A stretch of DNA of 64,000 nt from Candidatus Bipolaricaulota bacterium (GCA_026982655.1 JALSGO010000083.1:30-64029), one strand, 5' to 3'. Shown: positions 32,479 through 52,618, numbered from the stretch's first letter. Numbers and translations: made by a program. The notes: generated by a model not told the origin, from the sequence alone.

Positions 32479-32502
32479 TTCCCACCCCACCGGGGGTGGG
32501 AA
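32479..32502 (+). promoter_or_regulatory. CsoR-type operator, perfect 10-bp-arm inverted repeat TTCCCACCCC-ACCG-GGGGTGGGAA
   Basis: Read directly; same architecture (CCCACCCC-N4-GGGGTGGG) as characterised CsoR operators; 28 nt upstream of the Rieske gene start. Confidence 0.6.
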
Positions 32503-35923: not shown

Positions 35924-36238
35924 ATGACCGAAGAACTACTGGTGTTGTTACAGCAGGGGAGCCTGGCGGCCCACCCGGAGGCGAAGCGCCACGCCCAGCG
36001 GCTCGTCCGCACCGTCATCGGCCACACCCAGGGCATCGAGCGGATGATCGAGGAAGAGCGATACTGCATCGACATCTTAAAGCAGATCGCCGCGGTGCAG
36101 GGGCTGCTGACCAAGCTGGCCCACACCGTAAGCGAAGCCCACATGAAACACTGCGTGCGACTGGCCATCGAGGAGGGCCACGGCGAGGAGGCCGTTGAAG
36201 AACTGATGGAGACGCTGAAATACCTGCGGAGCGTATAG
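35924..36238 (+). CDS. csoR: CsoR family Cu(I)-sensing transcriptional repressor
   Basis: ~104 aa; Cys (RYC) and H-x3-C (AHMKHC) with C-to-H spacing of 25 as in M. tuberculosis CsoR C36/H61/C65; no N-terminal His cluster (not RcnR). Confidence 0.8.
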   Translation: MTEELLVLLQQGSLAAHPEAKRHAQRLVRTVIGHTQGIERMIEEERYCIDILKQIAAVQGLLTKLAHTVSEAHMKHCVRLAIEEGHGEEAVEELMETLKYLRSV

Positions 36239-36245
36239 TTCCCCC

Positions 36246-38663
36246 ATGGGGTGGCTGGACGGCCTGCTGCGCCATCGTGGGCTCGTGCTGGGGGCGGCTT
36301 TGCTGCTCACCGTTCCGGCGCTCCTGTCTCTCAGTCGATTGGAGTCCCAGGACACCTACGATGCTTGGTTCCCCCCGGACGACCCGGCGTATCGCTTCTA
36401 TCGGGAGTTCCAGCGGCGGTTTGAGAACGACATGTTCATCGTGGTGGCCTATCGAGACGAGACCCTCTTCACCCGGGAGGGGCTGGCGTTCCTCGCGGAG
36501 CTCACCGCCCGTCTTGCGGAGCTCCCCTACGTGCGGGAGGTGACCAGCCTCACGAACGTCGAGCACGTCCGGGGGGAAGAGCAGGCGCTCATCGTCGAAC
36601 CCCTCGTCCCCGATCCGGAGCGCCTCGATCCCGACGTCGTCCGGCAACGGGCCCTCTCGCGCCCCCTCTACCGCGGGCTGCTGATCTCCGAGGACGGGAC
36701 GACGACCGCGGTCGTCGCCGAACTCGACCGGATCGCCTCCATGGACGAGGAGGCCGCTCTGGTGGGGGCCCTCAAGGACCTCCTGCGCACGCTGGAGGTC
36801 CGAACGGGCAAGTCCTTCTACATCGGGGGCTATCCCGTCCTCGACGTCGAGATCATGCAGGCTTCCGAGCGGGATATCCGGACGTTCATCCCCTTGACCG
36901 TCGGGGCCATCTTCCTCGTATTGTGGGGGGTCTTCCGCCGACCGTCGCTGGCCGCCCTGGCGTTCGTGTCCGTCTCGCTGGCGCTGGCTTGGACCTTCGG
37001 GCTGTACGCCGGCCTGGGTCTTAAGTACAGCATGATGCTGAGCATCCTGCCCACGATCATCCTCGCCATCGGGATTGCGGATGCGGTACACATCTTGGTC
37101 CACTACTACGAGGAGCTCGCCCGGGGGCGGCCGCAGCGGGAGGCCCTCCGTCAGACCCTACGAAAGATGCTCCGCCCCTGTCTGTTCACGACGCTGACGA
37201 CCGGAGCCGGGTTCATCTCGTTCTTGAGCAGCGATATCCCCGTGGTGCGGCTGACGGGGCTCTTTGCCGCGGTGGGCATCGGGCTTGCGTTCGTGCTCAC
37301 GGTGCTCGTGCTGCCCGCAGCCGTCTCGTTTTTCCGCCCGCCGCACGGGACGGCCCGGCGACGGTCTCAGGGCACGTTCGCTCGGGCCTTGGAGGGGCTG
37401 ACCCGAACGACCCTGGCCCACCCGCGCGCCGTGCTCCTGGGGGCCGGGATCGTGCTCGTCTTCGGCCTGTACGGGATCTCCCGCTTGGAAGCCGAGACGC
37501 TGGGCCTGGAGTGGCTGCGCGACGACCACCCCCTCCAGCAGAGCTATCGCTTCATCGAGGAGAACCTCACCGGGCTGTACAACCTCGAGCTCATCGTCGA
37601 GGGCGAACGGGACGCGCTCCGCTCCCCCGAGATGCTCCGCCGGATCGAGGAACTCAGTGCGTTTGCGCTCCAACAGCCGGGCGTGCGCAAGGCGATCTCC
37701 GTGGTCGACTACGTCAAAGAGATCCACCGGGCGCTCCGCGGGGGAGATCCCCGGTACTACACGATCCCGGACACGGCCCGCGACGTCGCGCAGGCGTTGT
37801 TGCTCTACGAGTTCTCCGGGGGACGCGAGCTGCGCGAGATCGTAAGCGGCGACTACAGCGCCGGACGACTCACCCTGCTGCTGGATGCCCTCTCCAGCCG
37901 GGAGTACACCGAGCTCAACCGACGCATCCTCGAGCGCGCCGAGACGTTGGACTTCCCTCGGCCCGTGCAGGCAACCGGTGCAGTGGTCCTGGTCGAGGCG
38001 ATGCTCAAGAAGCTCACCCTCAGCCAGGTCCGGAGCTTGGGGTTGGCTTTGGCCCTGATCACCTTGCTTATGATCGCCCTGTTGCGCTCCTGGAAGTTGG
38101 GGCTGCTCAGCTTGATCCCCAACGGGCTGCCGATCCTGCTGATGTTTGCGACCATGGGCCTGCTCTCCATCCCCCTGGACGCGGCGACGTCCACGGTCGC
38201 GGGGATGGCTTTAGGGATCGCCGTGGACGACACGATCCACTTCTTGACCCGCTTCCGACGCGAACTGAACGTGACGGGCGACTATCGCCGGGCGCTCACG
38301 CAGACGGCCCGGACGGTCGGCCAGGCGATCGTGTTCACGTCCGTGATCCTGCTGGCCGGCTTCAGCGTGCTGTTGCTGGGCAGCTTCAAGGGAACGGTGT
38401 ATATGGGGTTGCTCGTCGGGCTCACGATGCTCTTCGCGCTCGTAGGGGATTTGGTGCTCCTACCCGCGCTGCTCTGGGTCCTCAAGCCCCTCCCTGTGTC
38501 CGCAGCTGCTTCGACCCCGGCTCCGGCTCCGATGGCGGACGATGGCCGATCAGCTTCCGACCAGAGGAGGTTGAGGGAGGTCATGGACGACGCCCCCCGG
38601 GTGCAGGGTACGCTTATGCGTGGCCGGGACGAGGAAACAGGAGCCCGCGAAGCCGGCAGGTGA
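36246..38663 (+). CDS. RND superfamily transporter, MMPL/HpnN-like (12 TM, two periplasmic loops)
   Basis: 805 aa with duplicated 6-TM bundles and MMPL-type motifs (GIGIADAVHIL..., GIAVDDTIHFLTRF). Confidence 0.8.
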   Translation: MGWLDGLLRHRGLVLGAALLLTVPALLSLSRLESQDTYDAWFPPDDPAYRFYREFQRRFENDMFIVVAYRDETLFTREGLAFLAELTARLAELPYVREVTSLTNVEHVRGEEQALIVEPLVPDPERLDPDVVRQRALSRPLYRGLLISEDGTTTAVVAELDRIASMDEEAALVGALKDLLRTLEVRTGKSFYIGGYPVLDVEIMQASERDIRTFIPLTVGAIFLVLWGVFRRPSLAALAFVSVSLALAWTFGLYAGLGLKYSMMLSILPTIILAIGIADAVHILVHYYEELARGRPQREALRQTLRKMLRPCLFTTLTTGAGFISFLSSDIPVVRLTGLFAAVGIGLAFVLTVLVLPAAVSFFRPPHGTARRRSQGTFARALEGLTRTTLAHPRAVLLGAGIVLVFGLYGISRLEAETLGLEWLRDDHPLQQSYRFIEENLTGLYNLELIVEGERDALRSPEMLRRIEELSAFALQQPGVRKAISVVDYVKEIHRALRGGDPRYYTIPDTARDVAQALLLYEFSGGRELREIVSGDYSAGRLTLLLDALSSREYTELNRRILERAETLDFPRPVQATGAVVLVEAMLKKLTLSQVRSLGLALALITLLMIALLRSWKLGLLSLIPNGLPILLMFATMGLLSIPLDAATSTVAGMALGIAVDDTIHFLTRFRRELNVTGDYRRALTQTARTVGQAIVFTSVILLAGFSVLLLGSFKGTVYMGLLVGLTMLFALVGDLVLLPALLWVLKPLPVSAAASTPAPAPMADDGRSASDQRRLREVMDDAPRVQGTLMRGRDEETGAREAGR

Positions 38664-39424: not shown

Positions 39425-40000
39425 GTGATGAACGGGGAATCGAGGGACAAGGACCAAGGTCAGAATACGGAGATGCACGCGATCCGCCGCCGGGCGGCCT
39501 TCTTGAGCCGAGGCGGAGTGAGCCTGCCCCTCCTGATCATCGGGGTCCTCCTGGCCCTGGGGACGACTGCGGGCCTGGGGTATTTGCGTCTGGCGGGCCC
39601 ACCGGCGGCAGGCCCTCCGCGCATCGAGGTCACGCCGGAGCTCATCGAGTTCGGAGAGATCTCCCCCACCGAGAAGGCGGTCGTGGAGTACCGTGTGCGA
39701 AACGCCGGGGGAAGCCCGTTGGAGATCACCCGCGTGAGCACCTCGTGTGGGTGCACCACCGCCGAGGTCGGCAAGACGACGCTCCTCCCCGGCGAGACGA
39801 CTCCGTTGCGCGTCACCTTCGACCCCCAAGCGATGCGGGCCGAAGGGCTCAACGAGGAGGACATCTACCGGATCATCTTCCTAAGGAGCAACGACCCCGA
39901 GCGGCCGGAGGTTACCGTCGAGCTTCGCGGTCGCGTCCTGCCGTCGGACTCGGACTCGAACTCGAACTCGGAGCCGGAGTCTGCCGTCGAGGGGAGGTAA
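39425..40000 (+). CDS. DUF1573 domain protein (canonical SCGCT motif), membrane-anchored, (DS/NS)n-rich C-terminus
   Basis: YRVRNAGGSPLEITRVSTSCGCTT signature; paralog of the preceding gene. Confidence 0.7.
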   Translation: MMNGESRDKDQGQNTEMHAIRRRAAFLSRGGVSLPLLIIGVLLALGTTAGLGYLRLAGPPAAGPPRIEVTPELIEFGEISPTEKAVVEYRVRNAGGSPLEITRVSTSCGCTTAEVGKTTLLPGETTPLRVTFDPQAMRAEGLNEEDIYRIIFLRSNDPERPEVTVELRGRVLPSDSDSNSNSEPESAVEGR

Positions 40001-40098: not shown

Positions 40099-42771
40099 AT
40101 GGCCAAGGTCAAAGACCCCGTCTGCGGGATGGAGATCGACGAGGAAGAGGCCGTCGCCTCCCACGTCTACGAGGGGCAGACGTACTCCTTCTGCTCCAAG
40201 GACTGCGAGAAGGAGTTCGTCGAGAAGCCCGAGTTTTATGTCAAGCCGGAGCCCGCCCGCTCGGCGACCACGGGCGTGGACGTCGAGAGCACGGAGCCGG
40301 TGCACGCCGAGCTCCCCCTGGCGGGCTTGGACTGCACCAGCTGCGTGGTGACCGTCGAGCGCACCCTGCGGGAGGTCCCCGGCGTGGAGAGGGCCCACGT
40401 CAACTTCTCGCTGGGGATCGCGCACGTCACCTACGATCCCAAGGAGGCGAGCGTCGAGGACGCCGTCCAGGCGCTCAAGAAGGCGGGCTACGACGTGGGG
40501 GCCGCCGAGATGCGGGTGCGCATCGAGGGGCTTCGCTGCGCCTCCTGTGTGGGCTTCATCGAGGAGGCCCTGCGGAAGGTCCCCGGCGTCTTGGAGGCCA
40601 CGGTGAGCCCCGGAACGGAGACGGCGGTCATCCGCTACGTCCCCGGGATGGTGAGTTTTCCGGCGATCAAGGAAGCGATCGAATCTACGGGCTACAAAAC
40701 GGTCCACCGCCTGGAGGAGGAGGAGCCGCCCGATCAGGAGGCCGCCGCCCGCGAGCGGGAGTACCGCCTGCTCATGCGCCGCTTCCTCTTCGCCGCCGTC
40801 GTCTCCGTCCCGGTGCTCCTTACGGCCTATCCCGAGTTCGTGCCCTTCTTGAGGGATCTTCCCCGGAGCACGATCCGGCTCATCTGGGCCTTCGACGCGC
40901 TGCTGACGCTGCCCGTGTTGTTGTGGTCGGGTCAGCGCTTCTTCACGGGCGCTTGGGCGGCGTTCAAGCACCACAGCGCGGACATGAACACGCTGATCGC
41001 GCTGGGCACCGGCGCGGCGTGGGCCTATTCGACGGTCGCGATCGCCTTCCCTCAAGTGTTCCCCGAGGGGACGGCGGAGCCCTTCTTCGACGTGGCCGCC
41101 GTGGTCATCGCCTTGGTCGTGTTGGGCCAAGCGCTCGAGGTCCGGGCCAAGGGGCGCACCAGCGCGGCGATCAAAAAGCTTCTCGACTTACAAGCCAAGA
41201 CGGCCCGCGTGGTGCGCGACGGGCAGGAGATGGACATCCCCGTGGAAGAGGTGCTCGTGGGCGACGTGGTGGTGGTCCGCCCCGGCGAGAAGGTGCCTGT
41301 AGACGGCGTGGTGATCGAGGGCTCCTCCGCGGTGGACGAGTCGATGATCACCGGGGAGCCGATCCCCGTGGAAAAAAATCCCGGGGATGAGGTGATCGGC
41401 GGGACGATCAACAAGACGGGGTCCTTCAAGTTCCGGGCGACCAAGGTGGGCAAGGAGACGGCGCTGGCGCAGATCGTCCAGCTCGTACAACAAGCCCAAA
41501 GCACCAAGCCCCCGATCGCCCGGCTGGTGGATGTGGTGAGCGGCTACTTCGTGCCCGCGGTGATGATCATCGCGGTGCTGGCGTTCTTGGTATGGTTTAA
41601 TTTCGGGCCGGAGCCGCGGCTGACCTTCGCCCTGGTGACCGCGGTGACCACGCTGATCATCGCCTGCCCCTGCGCGCTGGGGCTGGCCACCCCCATGAGC
41701 ATCATGGTCGGGGTGGGCAAGGCCGCCGAACACGGGATTCTCATTCGCAACGGCGAGGCCCTCCAAAAGGCCTCGAAGCTGGACACGATCGTGCTCGACA
41801 AGACGGGCACGGTCACCAAGGGGAAGCCCGAGCTGACCGACGTGATCGCCGCTGAGGGCTTTACAGAAGACGAGGTGCTCCGCCTGGCGGCCAGCGCGGA
41901 GCGGGCCAGCGAACACCCCTTGGCCGAGGCGATCGTCCAGGGCGCCCAGGCGCGCGGACTGGAGCTTGCGGACCCCGAGACGTTCAACGCCGTCCCCGGC
42001 CACGGGATCGAAGCCACGCTCGACGGCAAGAGAGTGCTCCTGGGCAACGTAAAACTCATGAAGCGCGAGGGCATCGACGTCGGCGGCCTCCGCGAGGCGG
42101 CGGAGCGCCTCTCCGACGAGGGCAAGACCCCGATGTACATGGCCGTCGACGGCCAAGCCGCGGGGCTGATCGCCGTGGCCGACACGATCAAGGAAGACTC
42201 CGTCGCGGCCATTCGGACGCTCCAGGAGCTGGGGCTGGAGGTCGTCATGCTCACCGGGGACAACCGCCGCACCGCCGAGGCGATCGCCCGCCAGGTCCAC
42301 ATCGACCGGGTCCTGGCCGAAGTGCTCCCGGAGCAGAAGGCGGCAGAGGTGAAGAAGCTGCAGCTCGAGGGCCGCAGGGTCGGCATGGTCGGCGACGGGA
42401 TCAACGACGCGCCCGCCCTGGCCCAGGCCGACGTGGGCTTCGCCATCGGGACGGGGACGGACGTGGCCATTGAAGCTGCGGACATCACGCTCGTGGGCGG
42501 AAGCCTCCGCGGGGTGGTCACCGCCATCGAGATCTCCAAGGCCACCATGCGCAACATCAAGCAAAATCTCGTGGGAGCCTTCATCTACAACACGCTGGGC
42601 ATCCCGGTGGCCGCGGGGGTCTTCTATCCCCTCACGGGGATGCTGCTGAGCCCCCTCATCGCGGGGGCGGCGATGGCGTTTAGCAGCGTGACCGTGGTGA
42701 CGAACGCCAACCGCCTGCGGCGGTTCCGGCCCCGGATCGTCTCCGACTTCGAGGAAGGAGGTACGACATGA
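40099..42771 (+). CDS. copA: Copper-translocating P1B-type ATPase with N-terminal YHS/TRASH domain plus two HMA domains
   Basis: [11 protein letters not shown]...[12 protein letters not shown] (YHS/TRASH); two CxxC HMA domains; [16 protein letters not shown]. Confidence 0.9.
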
Positions 42772-43142
42772 TCGCGCAAATCGTGGTGAACGTCTTGGGG
42801 CTGCTCGCGATCGTCTGGATCGTCTGGTACTTCTGGATCTACGAGAAGAAGGGCGTCGTGGCCGCGGAGGCGGGCGGCGCTCAAGAAGTTCGCATTCGGG
42901 TCAAGGGGGGCTACGACCCCGACGTCATCGTCGTCCAGGCCGGAAAGCCCGTGAAACTCCACTTCTACCGCGAGGAGGAGGCGTCGTGCAGCGAGACGGT
43001 CGTCTTCCCGGACTTCGCCCAGTCGCTGAAGCTTCCGCCCTTTGAGACCGTCACCCTGGAGCTTCTGCCGGAGAAGCCGGGGGAGTACGAGTTCCACTGC
43101 CAGATGAACATGCTGCGGGGCAAGCTCATCGTGGAGGAGTGA
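42768..43142 (+). CDS. Cupredoxin-like domain small membrane protein fused downstream of copA ([10 protein letters not shown] motif)
   Basis: N-terminal TM helix, ~90 aa beta-sandwich region with Cys/His/Met cluster; paralog of 48785-49270; start overlaps copA stop (ATGA). Confidence 0.6.
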
Positions 43143-43190
43143 GCCCTACGTGCGATCCACCTCCACAGAGAACGAAAGGATCGAAAGGGC

Positions 43191-44582
43191 ATGGGCGTAG
43201 ACTTGACGTTCCTCGGCGCCGCCGGGACGGTCACGGGCTCCAAGTATTGGCTCTCGGCGGGCGGCAAAAACTATCTCATCGACTGCGGGCTCTTCCAGGG
43301 ACCGGACGAGCTGGAGCAGCTCAACTGGGAACAGCTTCCCATCGCCCCCGCGGAGCTGGACGCCGTGGTGCTGACCCACGGGCACCTCGACCACTCGGGG
43401 TACCTCCCGCGGCTTGCGAAGAGGGGCTACTCCGGGCCGGTCTACGCCTCGGAGGCCACCTGCGCGCTGCTCGAGCTGCTTTTGCCCGACTCGGGATACC
43501 TGCAGGAGGAGCACGCGGGCTACGCCAACCGCAAGGGCTACTCCCGCCACAAGCCCGCGCTTCCGCTGTACACCTACGACCAAGCGCTCGAGTCCCTAAA
43601 GCTCTTACGGCCCGTGAAGCTCGCGGAGCCCTTCGCCGTAGACAAACACCTCACGGTCACGATGCGCCCGGCGGGCCACATCCTGGGCTCCGCGATCGTA
43701 GAGTGCGAGCTTGATAATAAAAAGATCGTCTTCTCCGGGGACCTGGGCCGCTACGATCAGGAAGTGATGAAATCCCCAGCGACGGTGACGCGGGCCGACT
43801 ATCTGCTGGTCGAGTCGACGTACGGCGATCGGGAGCACGGCGAGGACCCCATCGAAGATCAGCTGGCCCCCGTGGTGAACGCCGCTGTCGAGCGCGGCGG
43901 GGCGCTTCTCATCCCGAGCTTCGCCGTGGGCCGCACCCAGCACGTCCTCTACTACCTGCGAAAGCTCCAAGACCAAAAGCGCATCCCCGAGGTGCCCATC
44001 TACGTGGACAGCCCGATGGCCATCGACGCGACGGCGATCTACTGCCGCTTCGGAGATGAGCTCAACCTCAACGTCAACCTGCTGATGGACGACGAAGCCT
44101 GCCCGCTGCGCTGCCGCGACACGCGCTTTACGCGGACGGTCCCCGAGTCGAAGCGGCTCAACGACGCGCCGGGGCCTCTTGTGATCCTCTCCGCGAGCGG
44201 GATGTGCACCGGCGGTCGGATCCTCCACCACCTGAAGCACCGCCTGCCCGACCCCAAGAACACCGTGCTCTTCGTGGGCTACCAGGCCCAAGGCACCCGG
44301 GGCCGCAGGCTCCTCGAGGGAGCCGACGAGATCAGAATTCACGGGATGACCGTCCCGGTGCGGGCGGAGATCGCCCAGATCGACGGCCTCTCCGCCCACG
44401 GAGACGCCCGGGAGCTGATGCGCTGGCTCTCCGGGTTCGAGCGGCCTCCCGAACAGACGTTCCTCGTCCACGGGGAGCCGCACGCCTCCCAAGCGCTGGA
44501 GGAGCGCATTCGGAAGGAGCTGGGCTGGGCGACCCACCGGCCCCGCTACGGCGAGACCGTCTCCTTGGAGGGCAGGGGATGA
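43191..44582 (+). CDS. MBL-fold beta-CASP family RNA-metabolising hydrolase
   Basis: THGHLDHSG metallo-beta-lactamase motif, beta-CASP motifs (D..H..H) and C-terminal RNA-specificity region. Confidence 0.75.
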   Translation: MGVDLTFLGAAGTVTGSKYWLSAGGKNYLIDCGLFQGPDELEQLNWEQLPIAPAELDAVVLTHGHLDHSGYLPRLAKRGYSGPVYASEATCALLELLLPDSGYLQEEHAGYANRKGYSRHKPALPLYTYDQALESLKLLRPVKLAEPFAVDKHLTVTMRPAGHILGSAIVECELDNKKIVFSGDLGRYDQEVMKSPATVTRADYLLVESTYGDREHGEDPIEDQLAPVVNAAVERGGALLIPSFAVGRTQHVLYYLRKLQDQKRIPEVPIYVDSPMAIDATAIYCRFGDELNLNVNLLMDDEACPLRCRDTRFTRTVPESKRLNDAPGPLVILSASGMCTGGRILHHLKHRLPDPKNTVLFVGYQAQGTRGRRLLEGADEIRIHGMTVPVRAEIAQIDGLSAHGDARELMRWLSGFERPPEQTFLVHGEPHASQALEERIRKELGWATHRPRYGETVSLEGRG

Positions 44583-45304
44583 TCCGCTACGCGCTCTTCG
44601 ACTTGGACGACACGCTCTATCCCCCGGCGGCGGGGCTCATGGAGGCCCTCAGCCGCCGCTTTACGCAGTGCATCGCCGAGGAGCTGGGCATCTCCCTCGA
44701 ACAAGCCGAGGCCCTGCGGCGCGAGTACGGCAAGCGCTACGGCTCGACCACGCGGGGGCTCGCCCTGCATCACCACGTGGACATCGGGGGATTTTTGGCC
44801 AAGGTCCACGACCTGCCCATCGAGGAGTATCTGCAGCCCGACCCCGAGCTGGGGTGTTTGTTGGACTGCATCGACGCGCAGAGGTGCATCTTCACCAACG
44901 CGCCGGAGGCCTACGCCCGGCGGGTGTTAGACGTCCTGGGCGTCGCGGATCGCTTCTGTCGGGTCTTCGCGGTCGAGTTCTCGGGTTATAGGGGCAAGCC
45001 CGACCCCCTCGTCTACGAGCGGGTGGTCGCCGAGCTGGGCGCTTCCGACCCGGAGATCGTGATGCTCGACGACGTGCGGGCCAACCTCCTCCCCGCCGCG
45101 CAGAGGGGCTGGACGACCGTCTGGGTCAACGGGCGGGGGAAGCCCGCCGACCCTCAAGACCTCGACGGGATCTCCTATGCGGTGGGCGACCTCTGGGAGG
45201 TGGCCCGCGTCTTCCGCGAGATCGGGCTCCTCGACGAGGCCCACCACGAGGAGTGGAACCGCTGCCTCCTCCGGTGCCCGCTGGGCCGGAGACGGGCTGG
45301 GTGA
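44579..45304 (+). CDS. HAD superfamily hydrolase (pyrimidine 5'-nucleotidase/SDT1-like)
   Basis: FDLDDTLY motif I, FTNAP motif II, later K and DD motifs. Confidence 0.7.
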   Translation: MIRYALFDLDDTLYPPAAGLMEALSRRFTQCIAEELGISLEQAEALRREYGKRYGSTTRGLALHHHVDIGGFLAKVHDLPIEEYLQPDPELGCLLDCIDAQRCIFTNAPEAYARRVLDVLGVADRFCRVFAVEFSGYRGKPDPLVYERVVAELGASDPEIVMLDDVRANLLPAAQRGWTTVWVNGRGKPADPQDLDGISYAVGDLWEVARVFREIGLLDEAHHEEWNRCLLRCPLGRRRAG

Positions 45305-45347
45305 CCTTGCTGGACGTCTTCCGGGGGGAACATGACGCAGATCATTG

Positions 45348-45371
45348 ATCCCACCCCACGGGGGGTGGGAT
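45348..45371 (+). promoter_or_regulatory. CsoR-type operator, perfect inverted repeat ATCCCACCCC-ACGG-GGGGTGGGAT lying between -35 TTGATC and -10 GATAAT
   Basis: Read directly; 18-bp spacer promoter fully occupied by the palindrome; downstream gene is cytochrome b. Confidence 0.65.
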
Positions 45372-45405
45372 AATGGCGGGCGAAAGGCGGGCGAAGGAGG
45401 GACGC

Positions 45406-46491
45406 ATGGAAGCACAGAAGACGGTCATGCAAAGCCGACGGCGACGCCTCTGGGAGGCGCTCGACGAGCGCCTGGGGTTGAGCGCCCTGAGGTACCCCGT
45501 CCCCGCCCACGCCAACACGCTGGGATATATGTTAGGCGGGATCACCCTCTTTGGCTTCCTCATCTTGATCGCCACAGGCATTTATCTTACGCAGTTCTAC
45601 AACCCCGACCCCAGCCAAGCCCACGACAGCGTCGTCTACCTCGTCGAGCAGACGACGTTCGGGGACCTCGTCCGCAGCATCCACTACTGGACGGCCAACT
45701 TGGTGGTCGTCACCGTTCTCCTCCACCTTCTACGGATCTTCTTTGCGGGGGCGTACAAGCGGCCCCGGGAGGCCAACTGGCTGGTCGGCTTGGCGCTTTT
45801 GGCGATCACCATCGGCTTCGTCTTCACCGGCACGGTCCTCAAGTGGGACCAAGAGGCCTACGAGGCGATGCTCCACAACATGGCCTTCTCGGAGCTTCTG
45901 GGCGGGATCGGGAGCTGGTTCTCCCCAAGTTTTACCCTGAGCGTGCCGATGCTCACCCGCCTCTACGCCGTCCACATCGCGGTGCTCCCGGCGCTCTTCC
46001 TCATCTTGATCGCGATTCATCTGATGCTGGTCAAGTACCACGGGATCTCGCCGCTGCCCACCCTGAACGCTCGGGCGGGCACCTGGGGCAAGGAAGGGAC
46101 GGGCCGCTTCTCCGCGCACCTGCGGCGCATGGTGGGCTACGGGCTATGGCTGCTGGCCTTAGCGGGGGTGCTGGCGCTCCTCTGGCCCGCGCCGCTGGGC
46201 TATCCCCCGGTTCCGGGCGCCGAGGTGACGAAGCCCCCGTGGTTGTTCCTGTGGCTCTACGCCTTCGAGAACTGGGTGGGGACCGCCGGGCTGCTCTGGC
46301 CACCGCTTGTGCTCTTCCTGCTGCTGGCGTTGGTGCCCTTCCTCGACCGCAGCCCCTATCTGGCACCCCGAAAGCGACCCGTAACCGTCACGCTCGGCGT
46401 GGTGCTGTTGCTCTTTTTGGTCGGGTTGAGCGTGTACGTGGCCCTCACCCCGCCGGTGAGCCACATCCAAGGGCAAGGGATGGGAGGTTGA
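45406..46491 (+). CDS. Cytochrome b (bc/b6f-complex type; N- and C-terminal domains fused)
   Basis: Helix B/D bis-His pairs (HYWTANLVVVTVLLH; LHNMAF...VHIAVLP), 8 TM helices; GAAGGAGG RBS before ATG 45406 (ORF opens at 45373 inside the promoter). Confidence 0.75.
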   Translation: MEAQKTVMQSRRRRLWEALDERLGLSALRYPVPAHANTLGYMLGGITLFGFLILIATGIYLTQFYNPDPSQAHDSVVYLVEQTTFGDLVRSIHYWTANLVVVTVLLHLLRIFFAGAYKRPREANWLVGLALLAITIGFVFTGTVLKWDQEAYEAMLHNMAFSELLGGIGSWFSPSFTLSVPMLTRLYAVHIAVLPALFLILIAIHLMLVKYHGISPLPTLNARAGTWGKEGTGRFSAHLRRMVGYGLWLLALAGVLALLWPAPLGYPPVPGAEVTKPPWLFLWLYAFENWVGTAGLLWPPLVLFLLLALVPFLDRSPYLAPRKRPVTVTLGVVLLLFLVGLSVYVALTPPVSHIQGQGMGG

Positions 46492-46495
46492 GACC

Positions 46496-47077
46496 ATGCG
46501 ACCACAGAGCAGTTGGGTTCACGTCGGTTGGATCACAGCGTTGCTGACGGTGGCGGTGGGGATCGGGCTTGCGGTGGGGCTTCCGGGACGGGCCCACGAG
46601 GGCGCGGAGGTGAGCGCCTATCCTACCACCGTGGCCCCGGGGGAGACGCTCTTCGTGGAGGGCGCGGACATCAACCCTAACGGCCCGATCGCCCTCTTCT
46701 TGGAGGGCGTAAAGGGCAAGTTCCGCCTGGGTCAGGTCCGGGGGGACGAGGACGGCGGGTTCAAGACGAGCGTGGCCCTCCCGCCGGATCTCCCGCCGGG
46801 GACCTATTTGTTGGTGGCCGTCGGGGCCAACGGGGAGAAGGCCACCTTCTCGGTGACGGTGGCCGCCGCGGTAAGCTCCCTCACCCAAGAGCCCAGGGAG
46901 CCCACGGACGCGCTCATGGAGCTGGACCGGTCAAGGTCCTCCGAGGAGTGGGCGTTCCTCGCCGTCGTGATCGGGCTGAGCCTGCTCCTGGGGGCGTGGC
47001 TGGCCCGCCCGGAACGGATGGTTGCACCTGCCTCTCCTTCTGCCTCCGCCGCCGAGCCCGACGGGAGCGGGCCTTGA
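46496..47077 (+). CDS. Hypothetical periplasmic Ig-like protein with predicted mature N-terminal His and C-terminal TM anchor (possible CopC-like Cu-binding protein)
   Basis: Signal peptide ...GLPGRA|HEGAEV; beta-rich core; C-terminal helix WAFLAVVIGLSLLLGAWLA. Confidence 0.4.
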   Translation: MRPQSSWVHVGWITALLTVAVGIGLAVGLPGRAHEGAEVSAYPTTVAPGETLFVEGADINPNGPIALFLEGVKGKFRLGQVRGDEDGGFKTSVALPPDLPPGTYLLVAVGANGEKATFSVTVAAAVSSLTQEPREPTDALMELDRSRSSEEWAFLAVVIGLSLLLGAWLARPERMVAPASPSASAAEPDGSGP

Positions 47078-47103
47078 GCGCAAAGGGGGCCGAGAGGAAG
47101 GAG

Positions 47104-48309
47104 ATGAGCCGACGGGGGTACGAAGGAGTTTCGGTCGTGGGGGCCGGACCGGCGGGGCTTGTGGCGGCCCTCACGCTGGCCCGCGCAGGCGTCCCCGTCA
47201 CCGTCTACGAGAAGGGGCCGACGGTGGGCACCCGCTTCCACGGCGACTTTCAAGGCTTAGAGAACTGGTCCCGCGAGCTCGACGTCTTGGAGGATCTCCG
47301 GACGATGGGGCTTGCGATCAACTTCGCCGTGCAACCGCGCGACTCAGCGGACTTCTACGACGCCTGGGACCGGAAGTACGACATCAGGACCCGAGAGCCC
47401 CTCTTCTATCTGGTGCGCCGCGGGGGTGGGGAGGGGAGCCTCGACCGCGGGCTCTACGCCCAGGCCCGGGAGGCCGGGGTGCGGTTCCGTTTCCACACCA
47501 AGCTCGATCGGGTGGAGGGCCCGGCGATCGTGGCCACCGGCCCGCGCTACGCCGACGGCATCTGCGTGGGCTACCTCTTCGAGACGGACCTAGAAGACCT
47601 TACGGCCTGCATCCTCTCCCAGCGCCTGGCCCCCCGCGGCTACAGCTACCTCCTGGTGGCCGACGGTCGGGCGACGCTGGTGAGCTGCCACTTCGCCGAC
47701 CTCCCCCGCTGGCGGGATCATCTGGAGGCCACCGTCGAGGCCTTCCGAAAGCTTTACCGCTTTGAGATGCGGAACCCCCGCTTCTTCTCCGGCTACGGGA
47801 ACCTCTTCGCCCGGGGGCGCTTCCGCGACGGCCAAAAACTCTACGTGGGCGAGGCCGCCGGGCTCCAGGACGGCCTGTGGGGCTTCGGGATGCGCTTTGC
47901 CCTGCGCTCGGGATATCTGGCGGCCCAGAGCCTGCTCTCCGGCCAAGACTACGACGAGCTGGTCCGAAGGGAGCTTCTGCCGCACCACCGGGCGGGGCTG
48001 GTCAACCGCTTTTTCTGGAACCTCTTGAGCGATCGCATGTTGGCGTTCTTCCTGCGGCGGGCGGCGCGCTGGACCGACCTTCGGGGGCGGCTGCGCGAGC
48101 TCGCCGGGCCCCGTCCCTGGAAGGATCGGCTCTATCCCTTCATCCGGGGAGCCTGCGGCTGGCGGGCCCGCTACCGCGACGAGCGCTGCCTCCGGGAGGG
48201 GTGTCCCTGCATCGGGTGCGCGTGTCGGAGTCCTTCGCGTACGATCTCGAGCCCCTGCGTCTCTTGGGGAGCGGCTCGGTTCCGACTCGACATGACGCAA
48301 GTCATTTGA
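47104..48309 (+). CDS. FAD-dependent oxidoreductase (geranylgeranyl reductase-like) with Cys-rich C-terminal tail
   Basis: VSVVGAGPAGLVAALTLARAG dinucleotide-binding motif; tail ERCLREGCPCIGCACRS. Confidence 0.65.
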   Translation: MSRRGYEGVSVVGAGPAGLVAALTLARAGVPVTVYEKGPTVGTRFHGDFQGLENWSRELDVLEDLRTMGLAINFAVQPRDSADFYDAWDRKYDIRTREPLFYLVRRGGGEGSLDRGLYAQAREAGVRFRFHTKLDRVEGPAIVATGPRYADGICVGYLFETDLEDLTACILSQRLAPRGYSYLLVADGRATLVSCHFADLPRWRDHLEATVEAFRKLYRFEMRNPRFFSGYGNLFARGRFRDGQKLYVGEAAGLQDGLWGFGMRFALRSGYLAAQSLLSGQDYDELVRRELLPHHRAGLVNRFFWNLLSDRMLAFFLRRAARWTDLRGRLRELAGPRPWKDRLYPFIRGACGWRARYRDERCLREGCPCIGCACRSPSRTISSPCVSWGAARFRLDMTQVI

Positions 48310-48331
48310 CCCACCCCCTCTGGGGTGGAAT
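48309..48331 (+). promoter_or_regulatory. CsoR-type operator (imperfect): ACCCACCCC-CTCT-GGGGTGGAAT between -35 TTGACC and -10 AATAAT (17-bp spacing)
   Basis: Read directly; paralogous to the 45331-45375 module (CATGACGCA..TCATT..CCCACCCC..GGGGTGG.ATAAT). Confidence 0.55.
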
Positions 48332-48342
48332 AATAGAGTGAA

Positions 48343-48669
48343 ATGTCTGCAGAAGCGCGGCGCGGGATCGACAGCAGGTTCCGGGATCTCCTGTCCCTGT
48401 TGCTCATCGGGGTGTTGATCCTGCCGATGGCCGGCCCCTCCGGCCCCTTCACGGAGTCAGGGGCGTGTTCGGGGAACCCGCTTGAGGCGGGATGCGCTGC
48501 GATTCTGCATGTCGCCCGAGGCACGGCCGGTCATTGCCTGCCTTGTGGTGCCGTTGTCCTCCTGAGCTCTCCTCTGCCCTTTGCCTGGGCACTCGTAGGG
48601 GATTGGACTTCCGCCGGACTTGGCAGCCCGTTGGATCCGTCCTTTGTGCCCTGGCGTCCCCCTGCCTGA
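48343..48669 (+). CDS. Small Cys/His-rich membrane protein, probably leaderless (ATG 8 nt after the -10)
   Basis: TM helix LLSLLLIGVLILPMAG then GACSGN...GCAA...HCLPCG cysteine cluster; no SD. Confidence 0.4.
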   Translation: MSAEARRGIDSRFRDLLSLLLIGVLILPMAGPSGPFTESGACSGNPLEAGCAAILHVARGTAGHCLPCGAVVLLSSPLPFAWALVGDWTSAGLGSPLDPSFVPWRPPA

Positions 48670-48784
48670 CCTCCGCTTCGTTCTTTTGCCCGTGCCCGCG
48701 GTCCTTTGAACGGGCCTTCGTCGGCCTAAGGGATCGTACGTATCTCAACTCCATCTGCAATCTGCACAAGGAGCAGGAGGTCGA

Positions 48785-49270
48785 GTGCCAATGCCTAAGA
48801 AGACGAACAAGGATCGGAAGGTCAAGCAGCAGCGTCTACTCCGGCAGGGGGCGGCCGGGGGCTGGCGGCCCTGGGCCTTTGGGGCCGTCACCCTCGGGGT
48901 GCTAACAGCCGCGTTTGGGCTGCTCTTGCCGAAGTTCTTCGCCGACGGTCCCGCAGCGGACGGGGAGGCCAACGTCATCCTGGTCGAAGCGGACATGGCC
49001 GGGCTCTATCCCAAGGAGATCCGGGTCAAGGCCGGGGAGCCCGTGACCATCCGCCTGCGCAGCTTGGACAACCGGTTCCACCTGGACGGGGGAGGCAAGC
49101 ACCAGTTCGCCATCGACGAGCTGGGGGTCAACATCATCGCTCCGCCGCTCGGCACGGCCGAGGCCACCTTCATCCCTACGGAACCGGGTGAATACGAGTT
49201 CTACTGCGACATCTGCTGCGGCGGGCGGGCCAACCCGACCATGGTAGGGAGGCTGATCGTCGAGCTATGA
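48785..49270 (+). CDS. Cupredoxin-like domain protein (EYEFYCDICCGG motif), membrane-anchored
   Basis: Paralog of 42768-43142 (shared PGEYEF-xC motif and beta-sandwich core); GGAGCAGGAGG RBS. Confidence 0.6.
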   Translation: MPMPKKTNKDRKVKQQRLLRQGAAGGWRPWAFGAVTLGVLTAAFGLLLPKFFADGPAADGEANVILVEADMAGLYPKEIRVKAGEPVTIRLRSLDNRFHLDGGGKHQFAIDELGVNIIAPPLGTAEATFIPTEPGEYEFYCDICCGGRANPTMVGRLIVEL

Positions 49271-50109
49271 GCGCTCTGACCCAGATCTCCGCGCGCAAGG
49301 TGGTGCTGGCCTCGGCGATCGCCCTGGGGGTGATCGCCGCCGCGGTCTTCTTGGGGCTGCGGCACCCCTCCGCCCAGGCCGTCCCGATGAGCCCGCTCCT
49401 CCCGGCGGTGACGCTGGGGACCATCGTGGTGGCCGGGATCGTCGACGGGATCAACCCCTGTGCCTTCACGGTGCTCCTACTGTTCGTTACTGCCCTGCTC
49501 GCGAGCCTGCAAACCCGCAGCGACGTCGGGATCGCCGAGAACGTGGGGGCCACGCGCGCCCGGATCGTGGGGCTCGGCTCCATCTACATCGCAGCCATCT
49601 TCCTCACCTACCTGGCGCTGGGGGCGGGGCTCTTGGTGACGGCAGATCTCTTCGTGCGGGAGCACCTGCCCGCCCGGATCGGGGCGCTGCTCGCCATCTT
49701 CCTCGGGCTGTGGATGCTCAAGGACTACTTCCTGCCCGGGTGGGGCTGGCGGCTGGGGGCCCCCAAGGTCGTGGGGGAGTGGGCCCGGCGCGCGGCCCGG
49801 AAGATGACCGTCCCGGCGCTGGCGCTCGGGGGCTTTCTCATCGGGCTCTGCACCGTGCCCTGCAGCGGGGCGGTCTACCTGGCGGTGCTGGCGCTCCTCT
49901 CGACCCAGCCGACCGCGACGGCCTTCGGGTACCTGGTGCTCTACAACCTGATGTTCATCCTCCCGTTGGTCGGGGTGCTGGCCGTGGCCGCGTCGCGCCC
50001 GGCGCTGAACCGCTTGGCCCGCTGGAACCTCCACCACCGGGAGGGGGTCCGGCTGGCCTTGGGGTCGGGTGTCGTGCTCATGGGGCTGTTCATCCTGTAC
50101 ACCGTCTAG
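49267..50109 (+). CDS. Cytochrome c biogenesis CcdA/DsbD-family thiol-disulfide transmembrane protein
   Basis: Two TM-embedded Cys (DGINPCAF; CTVPCSGAV) in 6-8 TM helices. Confidence 0.7.
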   Translation: MSALTQISARKVVLASAIALGVIAAAVFLGLRHPSAQAVPMSPLLPAVTLGTIVVAGIVDGINPCAFTVLLLFVTALLASLQTRSDVGIAENVGATRARIVGLGSIYIAAIFLTYLALGAGLLVTADLFVREHLPARIGALLAIFLGLWMLKDYFLPGWGWRLGAPKVVGEWARRAARKMTVPALALGGFLIGLCTVPCSGAVYLAVLALLSTQPTATAFGYLVLYNLMFILPLVGVLAVAASRPALNRLARWNLHHREGVRLALGSGVVLMGLFILYTV

Positions 50110-50159
50110 CTGGGAAACGGAGAACGGATCGAGAACCCAGGAGAAAGGAGGAAGCGGCG

Positions 50160-50480
50160 GTGAACAACCATCATGCGGGAGGCGGCAAGCCCTGCCACGT
50201 CGAGCGGCTGGAGAAAGAGGTGGACATGGAGGCGCTGCGCTCCACCCGGGTCAGCATCCTGGCGGTGACGGGGATGGGGTGTCCCAACTGTGCCCTGCGG
50301 GTGCACAACGCGCTCCTCGCCCTCCCCGGCGTCCATCGGGTGGACGTGGAGCTGGAGGCCGAGCGGGCGATCGTCTACTGGGACCCGACCGCCCTGCAGC
50401 CGGAGAGGCTGATCGAGGCGGTCTCCCAGGCTGCGGCGGGGACCCCTCACGACTACCGGGCGTACTTCGTGAAGCCGTAG
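50160..50480 (+). CDS. Heavy-metal-associated (HMA) domain protein, CopZ-like (GMGCPNC)
   Basis: MxCxxC motif in beta-alpha-beta-beta-alpha-beta context; AGGAGAAAGGAGG RBS before GTG 50160. Confidence 0.65.
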   Translation: MNNHHAGGGKPCHVERLEKEVDMEALRSTRVSILAVTGMGCPNCALRVHNALLALPGVHRVDVELEAERAIVYWDPTALQPERLIEAVSQAAAGTPHDYRAYFVKP

Positions 50481-50642
50481 CGGAGCCACAGACGCAGAGC
50501 GGGGCTGCCCGGGGCCCGAGTCACCGTCGTCGCATCGGCTTCCACCTCCGCCCCGGGCAGCTCCCCGCCCTGCCCGCCGACGGCAGGGAGCTCCCACACA
50601 CGGGGAGAGAAGGAGAAAGGGAAGACACAAGGAGGGATTTCC

Positions 50643-51173
50643 ATGGACCTTAGGCTCATCGCCGTTGCGATCGTCTCCTTGGCGCTGGGGTTCCTCTTGG
50701 CCTCCGGCCTGCGCCCGGAGGTCGGGGTGGGGCCTTCGGAGGCGGAGCGGATCTTGGAGCGGCTGCGGCGCGAGATCATCCCGGAGGAGGGCAGCCCCAC
50801 GGGCTACGGGATCGCCTTCAGCGAGGCGGGCTACCAGACCCTGGTGGCCAAGAACCGCACACTCAGCGTCCCGCCCGAGCGGGCGGACGACTTCGAGGGC
50901 CTGGACATGAGCCTGCCCTGCTGTCCCTTCCAGAGCCCGAGCGTCGACGAGGCGAAGAACTGCCCGTGCGAGCACCATCAGGCGCTCTACGGGCTGGCCA
51001 AGTGGCTCCTCCAAGAAGACTATCCCGCAGACCGGGTCCAGGAGGAGGTGGCGCGCTGGAGCCGCTACCTCTTCCCCAAGGAGGCGCTGCGGGCGGAGAT
51101 GGAGCGGCGGGCGAAGCTCGATCCCGCCGTCGAAGCCGCCCTGGAGGAGCTCAAGGCCAAGGGGAAGTGCTAG
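50643..51173 (+). CDS. Membrane-anchored Cys-rich hypothetical protein (LPCCPF...NCPCEHH motifs)
   Basis: N-terminal TM helix; two CC/CxC clusters plus HH; AAGGAGGGA RBS. Confidence 0.5.
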   Translation: MDLRLIAVAIVSLALGFLLASGLRPEVGVGPSEAERILERLRREIIPEEGSPTGYGIAFSEAGYQTLVAKNRTLSVPPERADDFEGLDMSLPCCPFQSPSVDEAKNCPCEHHQALYGLAKWLLQEDYPADRVQEEVARWSRYLFPKEALRAEMERRAKLDPAVEAALEELKAKGKC

Positions 51174-51227
51174 GCCGATTGGAACAGGGACGACCCGACG
51201 AGATCGAGGACGAGGAGGCGAGCGACG

Positions 51228-52541
51228 ATGATGGCATCCACAGCCGAACCGGCGGAAACGGAACCCCGACGGGGCGGGGGCCTGGGGAAGAGCCTTCGGG
51301 AGCGCTGGGCGCTCTGGACCCTGGGGCTGTTCGCCCTGCTGATCGTAGGGCTCTTCTTCTTCTACCGCCCGCCCATGGAGGAGAGCATCACGGGGGACAC
51401 CTTCCACCCCATCCGCGGGCTGATCGGCTTCCCCCACGGCCCGGGGGCCGCCGCGGAACCCTACGACGAGGAGGCCCTCGACCGCTTCGTGGAGGAGACG
51501 ATCGCGGAGACCTACGCCAAGGCGCGCATCGATCAGATCAAGCTCCTCCTCATGGGGCTCCTCATCGGCTTGATCCCGCTGGGCTATTACCGCGGTCGGT
51601 CGGACCGCCTAAAGCGCCTGGGACAGCGGGTCAACAAGATCTGGGACCCCTACACCTTCGGCACCGTCTCGGGGCTCCTTTTGGTGGGGGTGATCATCCC
51701 TACGGGGACGGTCCTCGGCCTCTTCTACAGCGCCGACGCGGAGAAGCTCTACGAGAGCATGGCGGGCATCGTGGGGAACCCCATCCTGAGTTTCCTGCGC
51801 AACCTCCACCTCTGGGCCTCGGAGGCGTTCTTGCTCTTCCTGTTCCTGCACACGGCCCGGATCGTCTCCACGCGGGCCTACTTTGCGGGACGCAAGCTCG
51901 TCTGGGTTCTGGGTGTCGTGCTGCTTGTGATCAGCTGGGCGACCTTCCTGATCGGCACCTTCATCCGGGGGGACCAGGAAGCGTTTGAGGCCTGGGTCCA
52001 CATGATGGCCCTCATCCGCTTCATCCCCCTCGTCGGGGACCCGATCGCCGACTTCTTCTCCGGCCCCTTCGCCGTCATGCGGCTGTACGTCTTCCACATC
52101 GTGATCACCACCATCGCCTTGCTGCTGATTCTGGCACCCCACGTGCTGATGCAGAAGGTGTACGTCCACGTGCAGCGGCGCTGGAGGGCGGCCCTTCGCT
52201 ACACCCTGGGGCTTACGGCCCTGATCGCGGTCCTCAGCCTGCTGGTGCCCGCCCCCTTCCTGGCGGAGCCCTACCACGACCTGGAGATCACCAAGCCACC
52301 GTGGCCCTATTACTTCCTGTACGCCTGGGAGAACATCGGCGGCGCGGTGAGCATGATCTGGTCGCCGCTGCTCATCCTGGTGCCGCTGCTTCTGCTGCCG
52401 TACGCGCTGGAGCAGCTGCCACTCGCCCGCCGGACCGCCCAACGGGTGGGCGACTGGGTCTTCTACGGCGGGGTCCTGATCACCTTAGGGCTGAGCTACT
52501 GGGTGGCCGCCTCGGGAATTGTGGCCCACGTCTTCGAATGA
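51228..52541 (+). CDS. Cytochrome b (bc-complex type), second paralog
   Basis: Bis-His helix motifs (NLHLWASEAFLLFLFLH; WVHMMALIRF...FHIVITT), 8-10 TM helices. Confidence 0.7.
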   Translation: MMASTAEPAETEPRRGGGLGKSLRERWALWTLGLFALLIVGLFFFYRPPMEESITGDTFHPIRGLIGFPHGPGAAAEPYDEEALDRFVEETIAETYAKARIDQIKLLLMGLLIGLIPLGYYRGRSDRLKRLGQRVNKIWDPYTFGTVSGLLLVGVIIPTGTVLGLFYSADAEKLYESMAGIVGNPILSFLRNLHLWASEAFLLFLFLHTARIVSTRAYFAGRKLVWVLGVVLLVISWATFLIGTFIRGDQEAFEAWVHMMALIRFIPLVGDPIADFFSGPFAVMRLYVFHIVITTIALLLILAPHVLMQKVYVHVQRRWRAALRYTLGLTALIAVLSLLVPAPFLAEPYHDLEITKPPWPYYFLYAWENIGGAVSMIWSPLLILVPLLLLPYALEQLPLARRTAQRVGDWVFYGGVLITLGLSYWVAASGIVAHVFE

Positions 52542-52590
52542 GGAGGGCCGGACTTGACAACCCTCCCCGGATGGGGTACAGTGAGACCAT

Positions 52591-52613
52591 ATCCCACCCC
52601 AGGTGGGGTGGAT
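52591..52613 (+). promoter_or_regulatory. CsoR-type operator (imperfect): ATCCCACCCC-AGGT-GGGGTGGAT immediately before GATAAG and the MMPL gene start
   Basis: Read directly; TTGACA at 52554-52559 upstream. Confidence 0.5.
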
Positions 52614-52618
52614 AAGGG

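Follow-up and report, generated by a model that had tools for sequence, protein, structure and literature searches.

Two different cupredoxins in a copper island of a Candidatus Bipolaricaulota bacterium: a probable CupA-type chaperone and a CuA-like protein encoded with a CcdA-like membrane partner

A 64,000-nucleotide (nt) stretch of DNA from a Candidatus Bipolaricaulota bacterium (GCA_026982655.1 JALSGO010000083.1:30-64029; hereafter the window) carries a copper island which encodes two small cupredoxins, referred to here as protein A and protein B (gene cupB) (Table 1). They would be two functionally different cupredoxins within one island under probable CsoR control. Protein A is very probably a chaperone of the CupA type which is anchored at the inner membrane face and hands Cu(I) to the ATPase CopA2. 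Protein B is a CuA-like protein whose gene is paired with that of a CcdA-like membrane protein, and we consider it probable that the two, together with a three-Cys HMA protein where one is present, form a cysteine-lined relay across the membrane, in which B is the outer copper site. An earlier sequence-only reading of the window had located both open reading frames (ORFs) and had described their products as transmembrane (TM)-anchored, cupredoxin-like proteins, one coupled to copA2 and the other heading a CcdA-HMA cluster, all of which was borne out and goes far beyond what chance would give. The GC content at third codon positions (0.90 for A and 0.86 for B) shows the bias expected of coding sequence, and the strings quoted for the two proteins are present (PGEYEFYCDICCGG in B, and that of A as well). 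The cupredoxin fold is indicated by homology to CupA for A, by an AlphaFold2 (AF2) model and Foldseek for B, and for both proteins by the Pfam profile PF13473 (Cupredoxin_1), which matches A at E 8e-23 (80.8 bits, cutoff 27) and B at E 4e-13.

The best match of protein A among all PDB sequences (phmmer) is CupA of Streptococcus pneumoniae (2MRY/4F2E; E 3.6e-22), with which it shares 41% identity over 94 aligned residues; the second-best is the cupredoxin metal-binding domain of pneumococcal CopA (4F2F; E 1.5e-9). CupA holds two Cu(I) ions, at site S1 (C74/C111) and at site S2 (C74/M113/M115) (PMC5646241; review PMC7558416), and all four ligand positions, C74, C111, M113 and M115, are occupied by the same residues in A. 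Cys74 and the C111-x-M113-x-M115 motif are invariant in 120 of 120 database homologs and also in 12 locus sequences. The ligand set first proposed for this protein, His-Cys-x-Met-x-Met, has to be corrected: position 110 is Q in 65, A in 24, H in only 12 and S in 9 of the 120 homologs, and because it varies in this manner (Q, A, S or T in ~90%), His110 was ruled out as a ligand, the real fourth ligand being Cys74, which had been overlooked. With CxMxM and no conserved His, A lacks the type-1 blue copper ligand set (His...Cys-x(n)-His-x(n)-Met), and so does B, which has no His after the Cys; the earlier statement that neither protein has a type-1 site was correct.

A single N-terminal hydrophobic helix (residues ~1-24) is present in A, and within the family 0-1 Lys/Arg residues stand before this helix versus 2-3 after it. 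The positive-inside rule, the sole basis for the orientation, indicates that the domain of A faces the cytoplasm and that its anchor is N-out, as in CupA. The ATG of the A gene overlaps the TGA of copA2 as ATGA, a GGAGG lies upstream of the A start, and the copA-cupA gene order recurs in 11 other, unrelated loci. Protein A would bind Cu(I) at the bis-thiolate S1 (C74/C111) and at S2 (C74/M113/M115) and would then pass it to the co-translated CopA2 for export, a transfer that we infer by analogy with S. pneumoniae CupA.

Protein A resembles S. pneumoniae CupA in length (124 amino acids [aa] in A), N-terminal anchor, ligand positions and a gene adjoining copA (PMC5646241, PMC7558416). The two differ in their setting: pneumococcal CopA has a cupredoxin metal-binding domain, whereas CopA2 has a YHS and two HMA (ferredoxin-like) domains with no Cupredoxin_1 match, and the regulator is CopY in the pneumococcus and CsoR here. 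At least 784 homologs of A were found, in groups including Chloroflexota, Caldilineae, Bipolaricaulia, Fraserbacteria, Nitrospinota, Nitrospirae, Gemmatimonadota and Thermaceae, the nearest named ones being from metagenome-assembled genomes (MAGs) of Bipolaricaulia and Fraserbacteria. The CupA family is broader than the streptococci, contrary to two papers which confine CupA to a few of them.

Residues of protein B are numbered here from the GTG at 48785; two must be subtracted for the ATG at 48791, which lies 10 nt after a GGAGG, agrees with the database gene call and is the likelier start (159 aa). The best PDB sequence matches of B are the CuA domains of nitrous-oxide reductase (N2OR), with E 1e-5 when the single sequence was the query and 5.6e-8 with the family profile. 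In the AF2 model, built with 26 homologs, 98 domain residues have a predicted local distance difference test score (pLDDT) of >=90. Foldseek with this model returned at the top a Bacillus anthracis Cupredoxin_1 protein and the CuA domains of ba3 oxidase and N2OR, the latter two at E ~1e-7 with a root-mean-square deviation of ~2.1-2.3 Å over ~98 residues, while CupA ranks 29th. In the HMMER alignment with P. nautica N2OR, H106 of B corresponds to His526, C141 to Cys561, C145 to Cys565 and M153 to Met572. Asn150 stands at the position of the second CuA His (His569), and a His is absent there in every family member seen.

Thus, B shares with the CuA domains of N2OR and cytochrome oxidase subunit II the fold and, in register, the His, the Cys-x3-Cys and the Met. 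It differs from them, and from the CuA motif H-x(~34)-C-x3-C-x3-H-x2-M, in the replacement of His569 by Asn150, a loop one residue longer, which puts the Met one residue further, an extra Cys144 and an HxDGGG insertion; because the second His is absent, B falls outside the CuA class. Compared with small proteins bearing the canonical FYCSVFCGxGHxxM, the C-terminal loop of B is likewise longer by one residue and contains the extra Cys, and an insertion of 8-9 residues (FH99xD101GGGx) precedes H106. The Cys-x-x-Cys-Cys triad that the sequence-only reading had singled out does exist, but it is part of a modified CuA motif which also keeps His106 and Met153. Protein B is a stand-alone anchored protein of 159-161 aa (16 kDa) that does not belong to an oxidase or N2O reductase; neither the recurrent neighbours of the cupB-ccdA pair nor the window genes scanned, a scan that did not take in every ORF, included cox or nos catalytic genes. 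We read B as an extracytoplasmic cupredoxin derived from the CuA type, with a likely thiolate-rich Cys3/His/Met copper site.

Two further proteins invite comparison with B. The B. anthracis Cupredoxin_1 protein (4HCF/4HCG), solved with Cu and Zn and functionally uncharacterised, heads the Foldseek matches and shares its Pfam family with B; unlike B, its related sequences carry a mononuclear C-x4-H-x4-M type motif (e.g., CSVGxHRxxGM) and not CxxCC. CopG acts in copper resistance in the periplasm; it has a CxCC motif, and cysteines bridge its tetranuclear copper cluster. Like B, it combines clustered Cys with His and Met outside the cytoplasm, and it provides a precedent for a multinuclear Cu-thiolate site; unlike B, it has a thioredoxin-like fold and no CcdA-like partner.

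The single N-terminal hydrophobic helix of B is flanked by ~6 Lys/Arg on its N-side versus ~1.5 on its C-side. These flanks, with natural HMA-TM-cupB fusions as independent support, place the domain of B outside the cytoplasm. Hence A and B are predicted to face opposite sides of the membrane, from the helix flanks for both proteins and from the fusions for B. Their description as paralogs stands in part: they share 27% identity over 88 aa (BLASTP, E 5e-9), but each is far closer to its own orthologs elsewhere. A recent duplication was rejected, since these orthologs, in other phyla, reach 55-90% identity.

The B family comprises more than 1,700 homologs from at least eight phyla. An unbiased search of 1.84 billion representatives, made with no word index, gave 3,405 matches at E<=1e-3 and 196 at E<=1e-10; in the distant relatives CxxCC, H106 and M153 persist, and H99 and N150 vary. 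For the gene context, one genome per species was scanned. Among the 600 pattern-matching stretches listed, 113 encode B relatives, of which 80 were kept, and two further loci from protein look-ups brought the set to 82. Their MAGs are labelled Chloroflexota, Rokubacteria, Betaproteobacteria, Deltaproteobacteria, Gemmatimonadota, Verrucomicrobiota, Omnitrophica, Fraserbacteria and Phycisphaeraceae, and one locus comes from a complete genome, that of Leptolinea sp. HRD-7. In a search of 72,556 plasmids B matched only nosZ, and no annotated copy from a cultured organism was found among them. The PDB profile search found no solved structure of the family, and no description of a module of a cupredoxin and a CcdA-like protein was found in the open-access literature. 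The family is therefore large and apparently unstudied.

The TGA of cupB overlaps the ATG of the CcdA-like gene, and the HMA gene is next. A homolog of the CcdA-like gene (53-77% identity of the products) lies directly after cupB in 81 of the 82 loci, the sole exception ending at a contig edge, and the pairing also extends outside the pattern-selected set, to a fusion protein of locus L083 and, in L086, to a distant variant of cupB. Mean column identity is 63% in the partner versus 42% in B. The sequence-only reading had regarded both cupredoxins as possible acceptors or chaperones of ATPase-delivered copper; this proposal has to be corrected, since A would be a cytoplasmic donor to its ATPase and the obligate partner of B is the CcdA-like protein, not an ATPase. 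In natural fusions (P0272, P0275, P0286, P0325, P0327 and P0366) the CxxCC cupredoxin follows an HMA-like domain, a linker that carries H-x-CC on the cytoplasmic side, and one TM helix. The fusion gene of L083 (5001-6652) has a 4-nt overlap with the next gene, which encodes a shorter (238 aa) CcdA-like protein without the extra N-terminal helix of its relatives, retaining C65, C195, C199, H133 and H256.

Invariant in the CcdA-like partner are C65 (in NPC), C195 and C199 (in LCTVPC, one helical turn apart) and H133, and the motif W253-N-x-H256-H257 is nearly so. In CcdA/DsbD proteins, which are built as a 3+3 repeat, TM1 and TM4 each carry a PCxxP motif with the redox Cys (PMC10319644). The partner has Pro-Cys twice (NPC65AFT and VPC199SGA), the second Pro of PCxxP being gone in both; hhalign of its N-half with its C-half puts the two PC motifs in register, with a weak E of 0.098. 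An extra N-terminal helix is also present. The annotation of the Joint Genome Institute (JGI) for the family is CcdA. DsbD_TM matches 6 of 20 relatives (best E 7e-7) and SfLAP matches 13 of 20, below its cutoff; the window protein gives only an SfLAP match (23 bits versus a cutoff of 35). The PDB profile search with the partner returned no solved CcdA even at E<=10, and Foldseek against the PDB with its AF2 model gave nothing below E 0.1. The sequence comparisons suggest that the partner is likely related to DsbD/LysE proteins at superfamily level, the window protein having no significant match to DsbD_TM or a solved CcdA. When the two closest genes on either side were compared in 77 loci, no thioredoxin-like cluster was found; the cupredoxin is the only constant neighbour.

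In the window, cupB is placed in a probably copper-responsive setting by its promoter. Four exact CCACCCC-N4-GGGGTGG palindromes (32482-32499, 45351-45368, 48311-48328 and 52594-52611) each lie at a promoter, and 0 of 100 shuffles reached the observed count of six matches to the operator pattern. G-tract pseudopalindromes are the known type of CsoR operator (PMC3902906), and the csoR product of the window is the likely regulator of the four sites. The palindrome at 48311-48328 fills the spacer of the cupB promoter. Only this promoter (48306-48334) and a second site (52554-52582) are promoter-like within 48200-52700, and between 48334 and 52554 there is no promoter-like or convincing terminator-like site. 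Since an operator of the CsoR type lies at the sole promoter and csoR is in the window, the unit composed of cupB, the CcdA-like gene, the HMA gene, p176 and the cytochrome b gene looks copper-derepressed. The promoter is separated from B by ~450 nt (48335-48790), which are treated as a long leader; they have no Rfam match, and a 108-aa ORF within them (48343-48669) was rejected as a gene, since it lacks a coding signature and is without homologs in the loci.

The gene found most often beside the cupB-ccdA pair belongs to an HMA subfamily; it occurs in 16 of 77 distinct loci, usually directly upstream (e.g., L050, L076, L056 and L034). The alignment of the subfamily reads NC[YH]VEP ... GMGCxNC ... 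GRHEYRA (C-terminal) and includes an extra conserved N-terminal Cys. The HMA protein of the window has no signal peptide; no NCBIfam CopZ or MerP model matches it above threshold, its MerP/MerTP matches being sub-threshold. A copA gene lies within 6 kb of cupB in 48 of the 82 loci.

That the relay carries Cu(I) itself is a reading to which we give a little less than even weight; more tentatively, the CcdA-like partner may be a thiolate-lined, ATP-independent Cu(I) permease of the DsbD/LysE superfamily, served by the HMA chaperone inside and by B outside. Cu(I) would start at the cytoplasmic HMA protein (C + CxxC) and move to the cytoplasmic His256/His257, would then cross via the membrane Cys65/Cys195/Cys199, and outer His133 would pass it to B (Cys141/144/145, His106 and Met153). 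The CcdA-like protein would in this case act as a soft-metal permease, not as an electron shuttle. The outward direction is favoured because the operon lies behind a CsoR operator. A relay of metal is favoured over one of electrons because of (i) the third invariant membrane Cys (C195), with H133 and H256/H257 on opposite predicted faces, (ii) the loss of the second Pro from both PCxxP motifs and the lack of any hidden Markov model (HMM) match to solved CcdA, and (iii) the three-Cys HMA subfamily, the H-x-CC of the fusions and the absence of a thioredoxin-like recurrent neighbour. In addition, Cd, Mn, Ni/Co and Fe/Pb are transported by members of the LysE superfamily, to which DsbD/CcdA belong (PMC10319644), and actinomycete mer operons encode CcdA-domain proteins whose annotation is that of Hg transporters (PMC12195606, Table 4).

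The Pro-Cys motifs, kept in two membrane helices and mutually in register in a weak alignment, the DsbD_TM matches of the relatives and the JGI label also fit a relay of reducing equivalents of the Scs/TlpA type, which we regard as possible, if rather doubtful. The CcdA-like protein would bring reducing equivalents from cytoplasmic thioredoxin outward and keep Cys141/144/145 of B reduced, or re-reduce them, and B would bind and sequester Cu(I), for example that exported by CopA, or would act as a reductant of Cu(II); the earlier idea of B as an outside acceptor of Cu(I) falls within this version. In its favour, B has a CxxC (C141-x-x-C144), the classic redox motif, on the outside, where copper catalyses thiol oxidation. 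CuA-type Cys pairs need reduction before metallation, as in the TlpA/ScoI/CoxB system. The DsbD-like ScsB serves a Cu(I)-binding periplasmic partner, ScsC (PMC7785015), and the Cys residues of CupA, able to reduce Cu(II) in vitro, depend on an unknown re-reductant (PMC5646241). The module is indeed similar to ScsB-ScsC and CcdA/DsbD-TlpA-ScoI/CoxB in that a DsbD-superfamily protein is encoded with an extracytoplasmic, Cys-containing copper binder, a predicted one in the case of B, with a copper-stress role. It differs from these relays in that B is a cupredoxin and not of thioredoxin fold, which counts against the reductant relay, in that the partner has three invariant Cys and His without the full PCxxP, and in that a cytoplasmic HMA domain is linked or fused. 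A relay of reductant leaves unexplained the third membrane Cys, the invariant His on both predicted faces, the lost second Pro, the dedicated three-Cys HMA subfamily and the HMA/'HxCC'-TM-cupB fusions, and the partner is too distant from solved CcdA for any HMM match.

Several points weigh against the Cu(I) relay, too. Everything that concerns metal in the B module we infer. The invariance of H99, D101, H106, C141 and C144 in 78 locus sequences was partly imposed by the search patterns. The positions of H133 in an outer loop and of H256/H257 in a cytoplasmic loop are predicted from hydropathy and the positive-inside rule only, and the AF2 model of the partner is too poor (pLDDT 64) to bear out the Cys/His geometry. 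The HMA gene is present in only ~20-40% of loci and the HMA CxxC is degenerate in several fusions, while CsoR-type operators stand upstream of cupB in only 2 of 81 loci, so that the copper regulation described here is shown for this window only. An ATP-free exporter would need a driving force and a sink downstream of B, and CopA already exports Cu(I), so that a second route is not obviously needed. Finally, to our knowledge, transfer of reducing equivalents is the sole experimentally shown function of PC-motif DsbD/CcdA proteins, which favours the reductant relay.

The cupB transcription unit ends in a cytochrome b-like gene, and its operator also stands before another cytochrome b operon and a Rieske gene. 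These genes, with four of the five CuA side-chain ligands in register in B and a fold superposing on CuA domains at ~2 Å, speak for B as an electron-transfer cupredoxin with a variant binuclear CuA-like centre. Its partners would be the island's cytochrome b and Rieske proteins, themselves under copper regulation, and quinol-linked Cu(II)/Cu(I) redox chemistry is one example of what they might do together; the CcdA-like protein would only reduce Cys during assembly. Engineered CuA azurin tolerates the loss of its C-terminal His. Nevertheless, cytochrome b genes accompany cupB in only 6-7 of the 82 loci, the second His is lost in all members while the third Cys is invariant, and a role confined to assembly predicts neither an overlapping, near-universal CcdA-like partner nor HMA fusions; we consider this explanation improbable.

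Slightly less probable still, in our view, is a MerP/MerT-like function, in which the module would serve another thiophilic metal (for example Hg(II), Ag(I) or Au(I)) and would only be carried along in copper islands. Vicinal Cys are typical of Hg(II) sites, the HMA protein has its sub-threshold MerP/MerTP matches, and CcdA-domain 'mercury transporters' are annotated in actinomycete mer operons (PMC12195606). With these transporters and the MerP-MerT hand-off the module has in common Cys clusters inside the membrane and at either side of it, an HMA domain and fusions (cf. MerTP). On the other hand, there is no sequence similarity to MerT, no MerA, and the context is that of copper: no MerA-like flavoprotein or MerR was found among the recurrent neighbours in the 77 loci, where copA, CupA-type, YHS and HMA genes recur, the cupB promoter shares its operator with the copA1/csoR operon, and B keeps the His and Met of a copper site. 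Uptake of the MerT/MerP type is also at odds with an HMA protein that is cytoplasmic, not periplasmic, and with the lack of a recurrent reductase neighbour. The B module resembles the Scs and Mer systems in logic and belongs to neither.

Table 1. Features of the copper island and metal-site codons of proteins A and B (window coordinates)
Feature	Position	Strand	Details
csoR, copper-sensing repressor	35924..36238	+	Pfam Trns_repr_metal 6e-24
copA2, P1B-type copper ATPase	40099..42771	+	Pfam E1-E2_ATPase 1e-63, Hydrolase, HMA x2, N-terminal YHS
Protein A	42768..43142	+	124 aa, CupA-type, Pfam Cupredoxin_1
Ligand codons of A	C74 42987-89; C111 43098-100; M113 43104-06; M115 43110-12		
Sigma70-like promoter TTGACC-17-AATAAT	48306..48334	+	CsoR-type operator in spacer
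Protein B (cupB)	48785..49270	+	161 aa from GTG, Pfam Cupredoxin_1
Site residues of B	H99 49079-81; H106 49100-02; C141 49205-07; C144 49214-16; C145 49217-19; N150 49232-34; M153 49241-43		
CcdA/DsbD-superfamily membrane protein, partner of B	49267..50109	+	
Cytoplasmic HMA metallochaperone	50160..50480	+	Extra N-terminal Cys (KPCHVE) plus GMGCPNC; Pfam HMA 9e-14
p176, membrane-anchored Cys/His-rich protein	50643..51173	+	176 aa (PCC...CPCEHH), in cupB transcription unit
Cytochrome b-like membrane protein	51228..52541	+	Final gene before next promoter; Pfam Cytochrome_B 3.5e-18

The window has a GC content of 66%, and outside the island it is chromosomal, with DnaK/DnaJ and peptide ATP-binding cassette transporter genes. 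The putative CsoR regulon consists of four operons: (i) Rieske-copA1-csoR-MMPL, (ii) cytochrome b-p193-FAD (flavin adenine dinucleotide) oxidoreductase, (iii) the cupB operon and (iv) MMPL-LolA-like; copper regulation of Rieske, cytochrome b and RND/MMPL-type transporter genes is unusual. The cytochrome b gene of the second operon (45406-46491; ~361 aa from ATG 45406), behind its CsoR-type operator, is followed by a gene for a 193-aa protein (46496-47077) with a signal or anchor, a beta-rich domain and a C-terminal TM helix, without a family match; the pair (45406-47077) is conserved in L028, L048 and L065. Three MMPL/RND-like transporter genes are located in or beside the island (36246-38663, 52619-55573 and 58189-60585), the one at 52619 being followed by a LolA-like gene (55625-56407) and a cyclopropane-fatty-acid-synthase-like gene (56461-57798). 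Just upstream of copA2, within the island, a DUF1573 protein (Ig-like, with a conserved CGC motif) is encoded at 39425-40000.

The p176 protein has no match in Pfam or NCBIfam; proteins resembling it (PCCNNPTHFPDCNHG) adjoin cupB-ccdA in other loci too, and a p176-like protein occurs near cupB in L010, L017 and L070. Further genes recur near the pair, including those for CupA-type and YHS proteins, a methyltransferase and several small Cys/His-rich proteins. In 16 loci (e.g., L034 and L012) the cupB-ccdA pair is closely preceded, on its own strand, by a gene for Lgt (prolipoprotein diacylglyceryl transferase), and in 11 by one for Lit/DUF1461 (lipoprotein intramolecular transacylase), a recurrence suggestive of a link between lipoprotein remodelling and copper stress in these lineages. 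A polytopic membrane protein of 166 aa, with ACCAHH within a predicted helix and without a Pfam match, is encoded near the module in six loci (e.g., upstream of cupB in L080).

For protein A, the findings mean that CupA-type chaperones commonly accompany ordinary HMA-type CopA pumps in many phyla and are not a streptococcal peculiarity, and together with CopA2 they weaken the idea that a cupredoxin chaperone needs a cupredoxin domain on its pump. In the B family, a CuA scaffold has been rebuilt into a three-Cys site and genetically locked to a three-Cys CcdA-like membrane protein. If the module relays reductant, a cupredoxin would be a direct client of a CcdA-type reductant transporter in copper defence, which would be new; if it relays Cu(I), the CcdA fold would have been turned into a soft-metal transporter, which would be new as well. 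A permease would constitute a third, ATP-independent route for Cu(I), widespread in Chloroflexota, Rokubacteria, Gemmatimonadota and other mostly uncultured lineages. Knowing which reading is right would also help to annotate thousands of genes whose present labels are 'cytochrome c biogenesis protein CcdA', 'cytochrome oxidase subunit 2' or 'nitrous-oxide reductase'.

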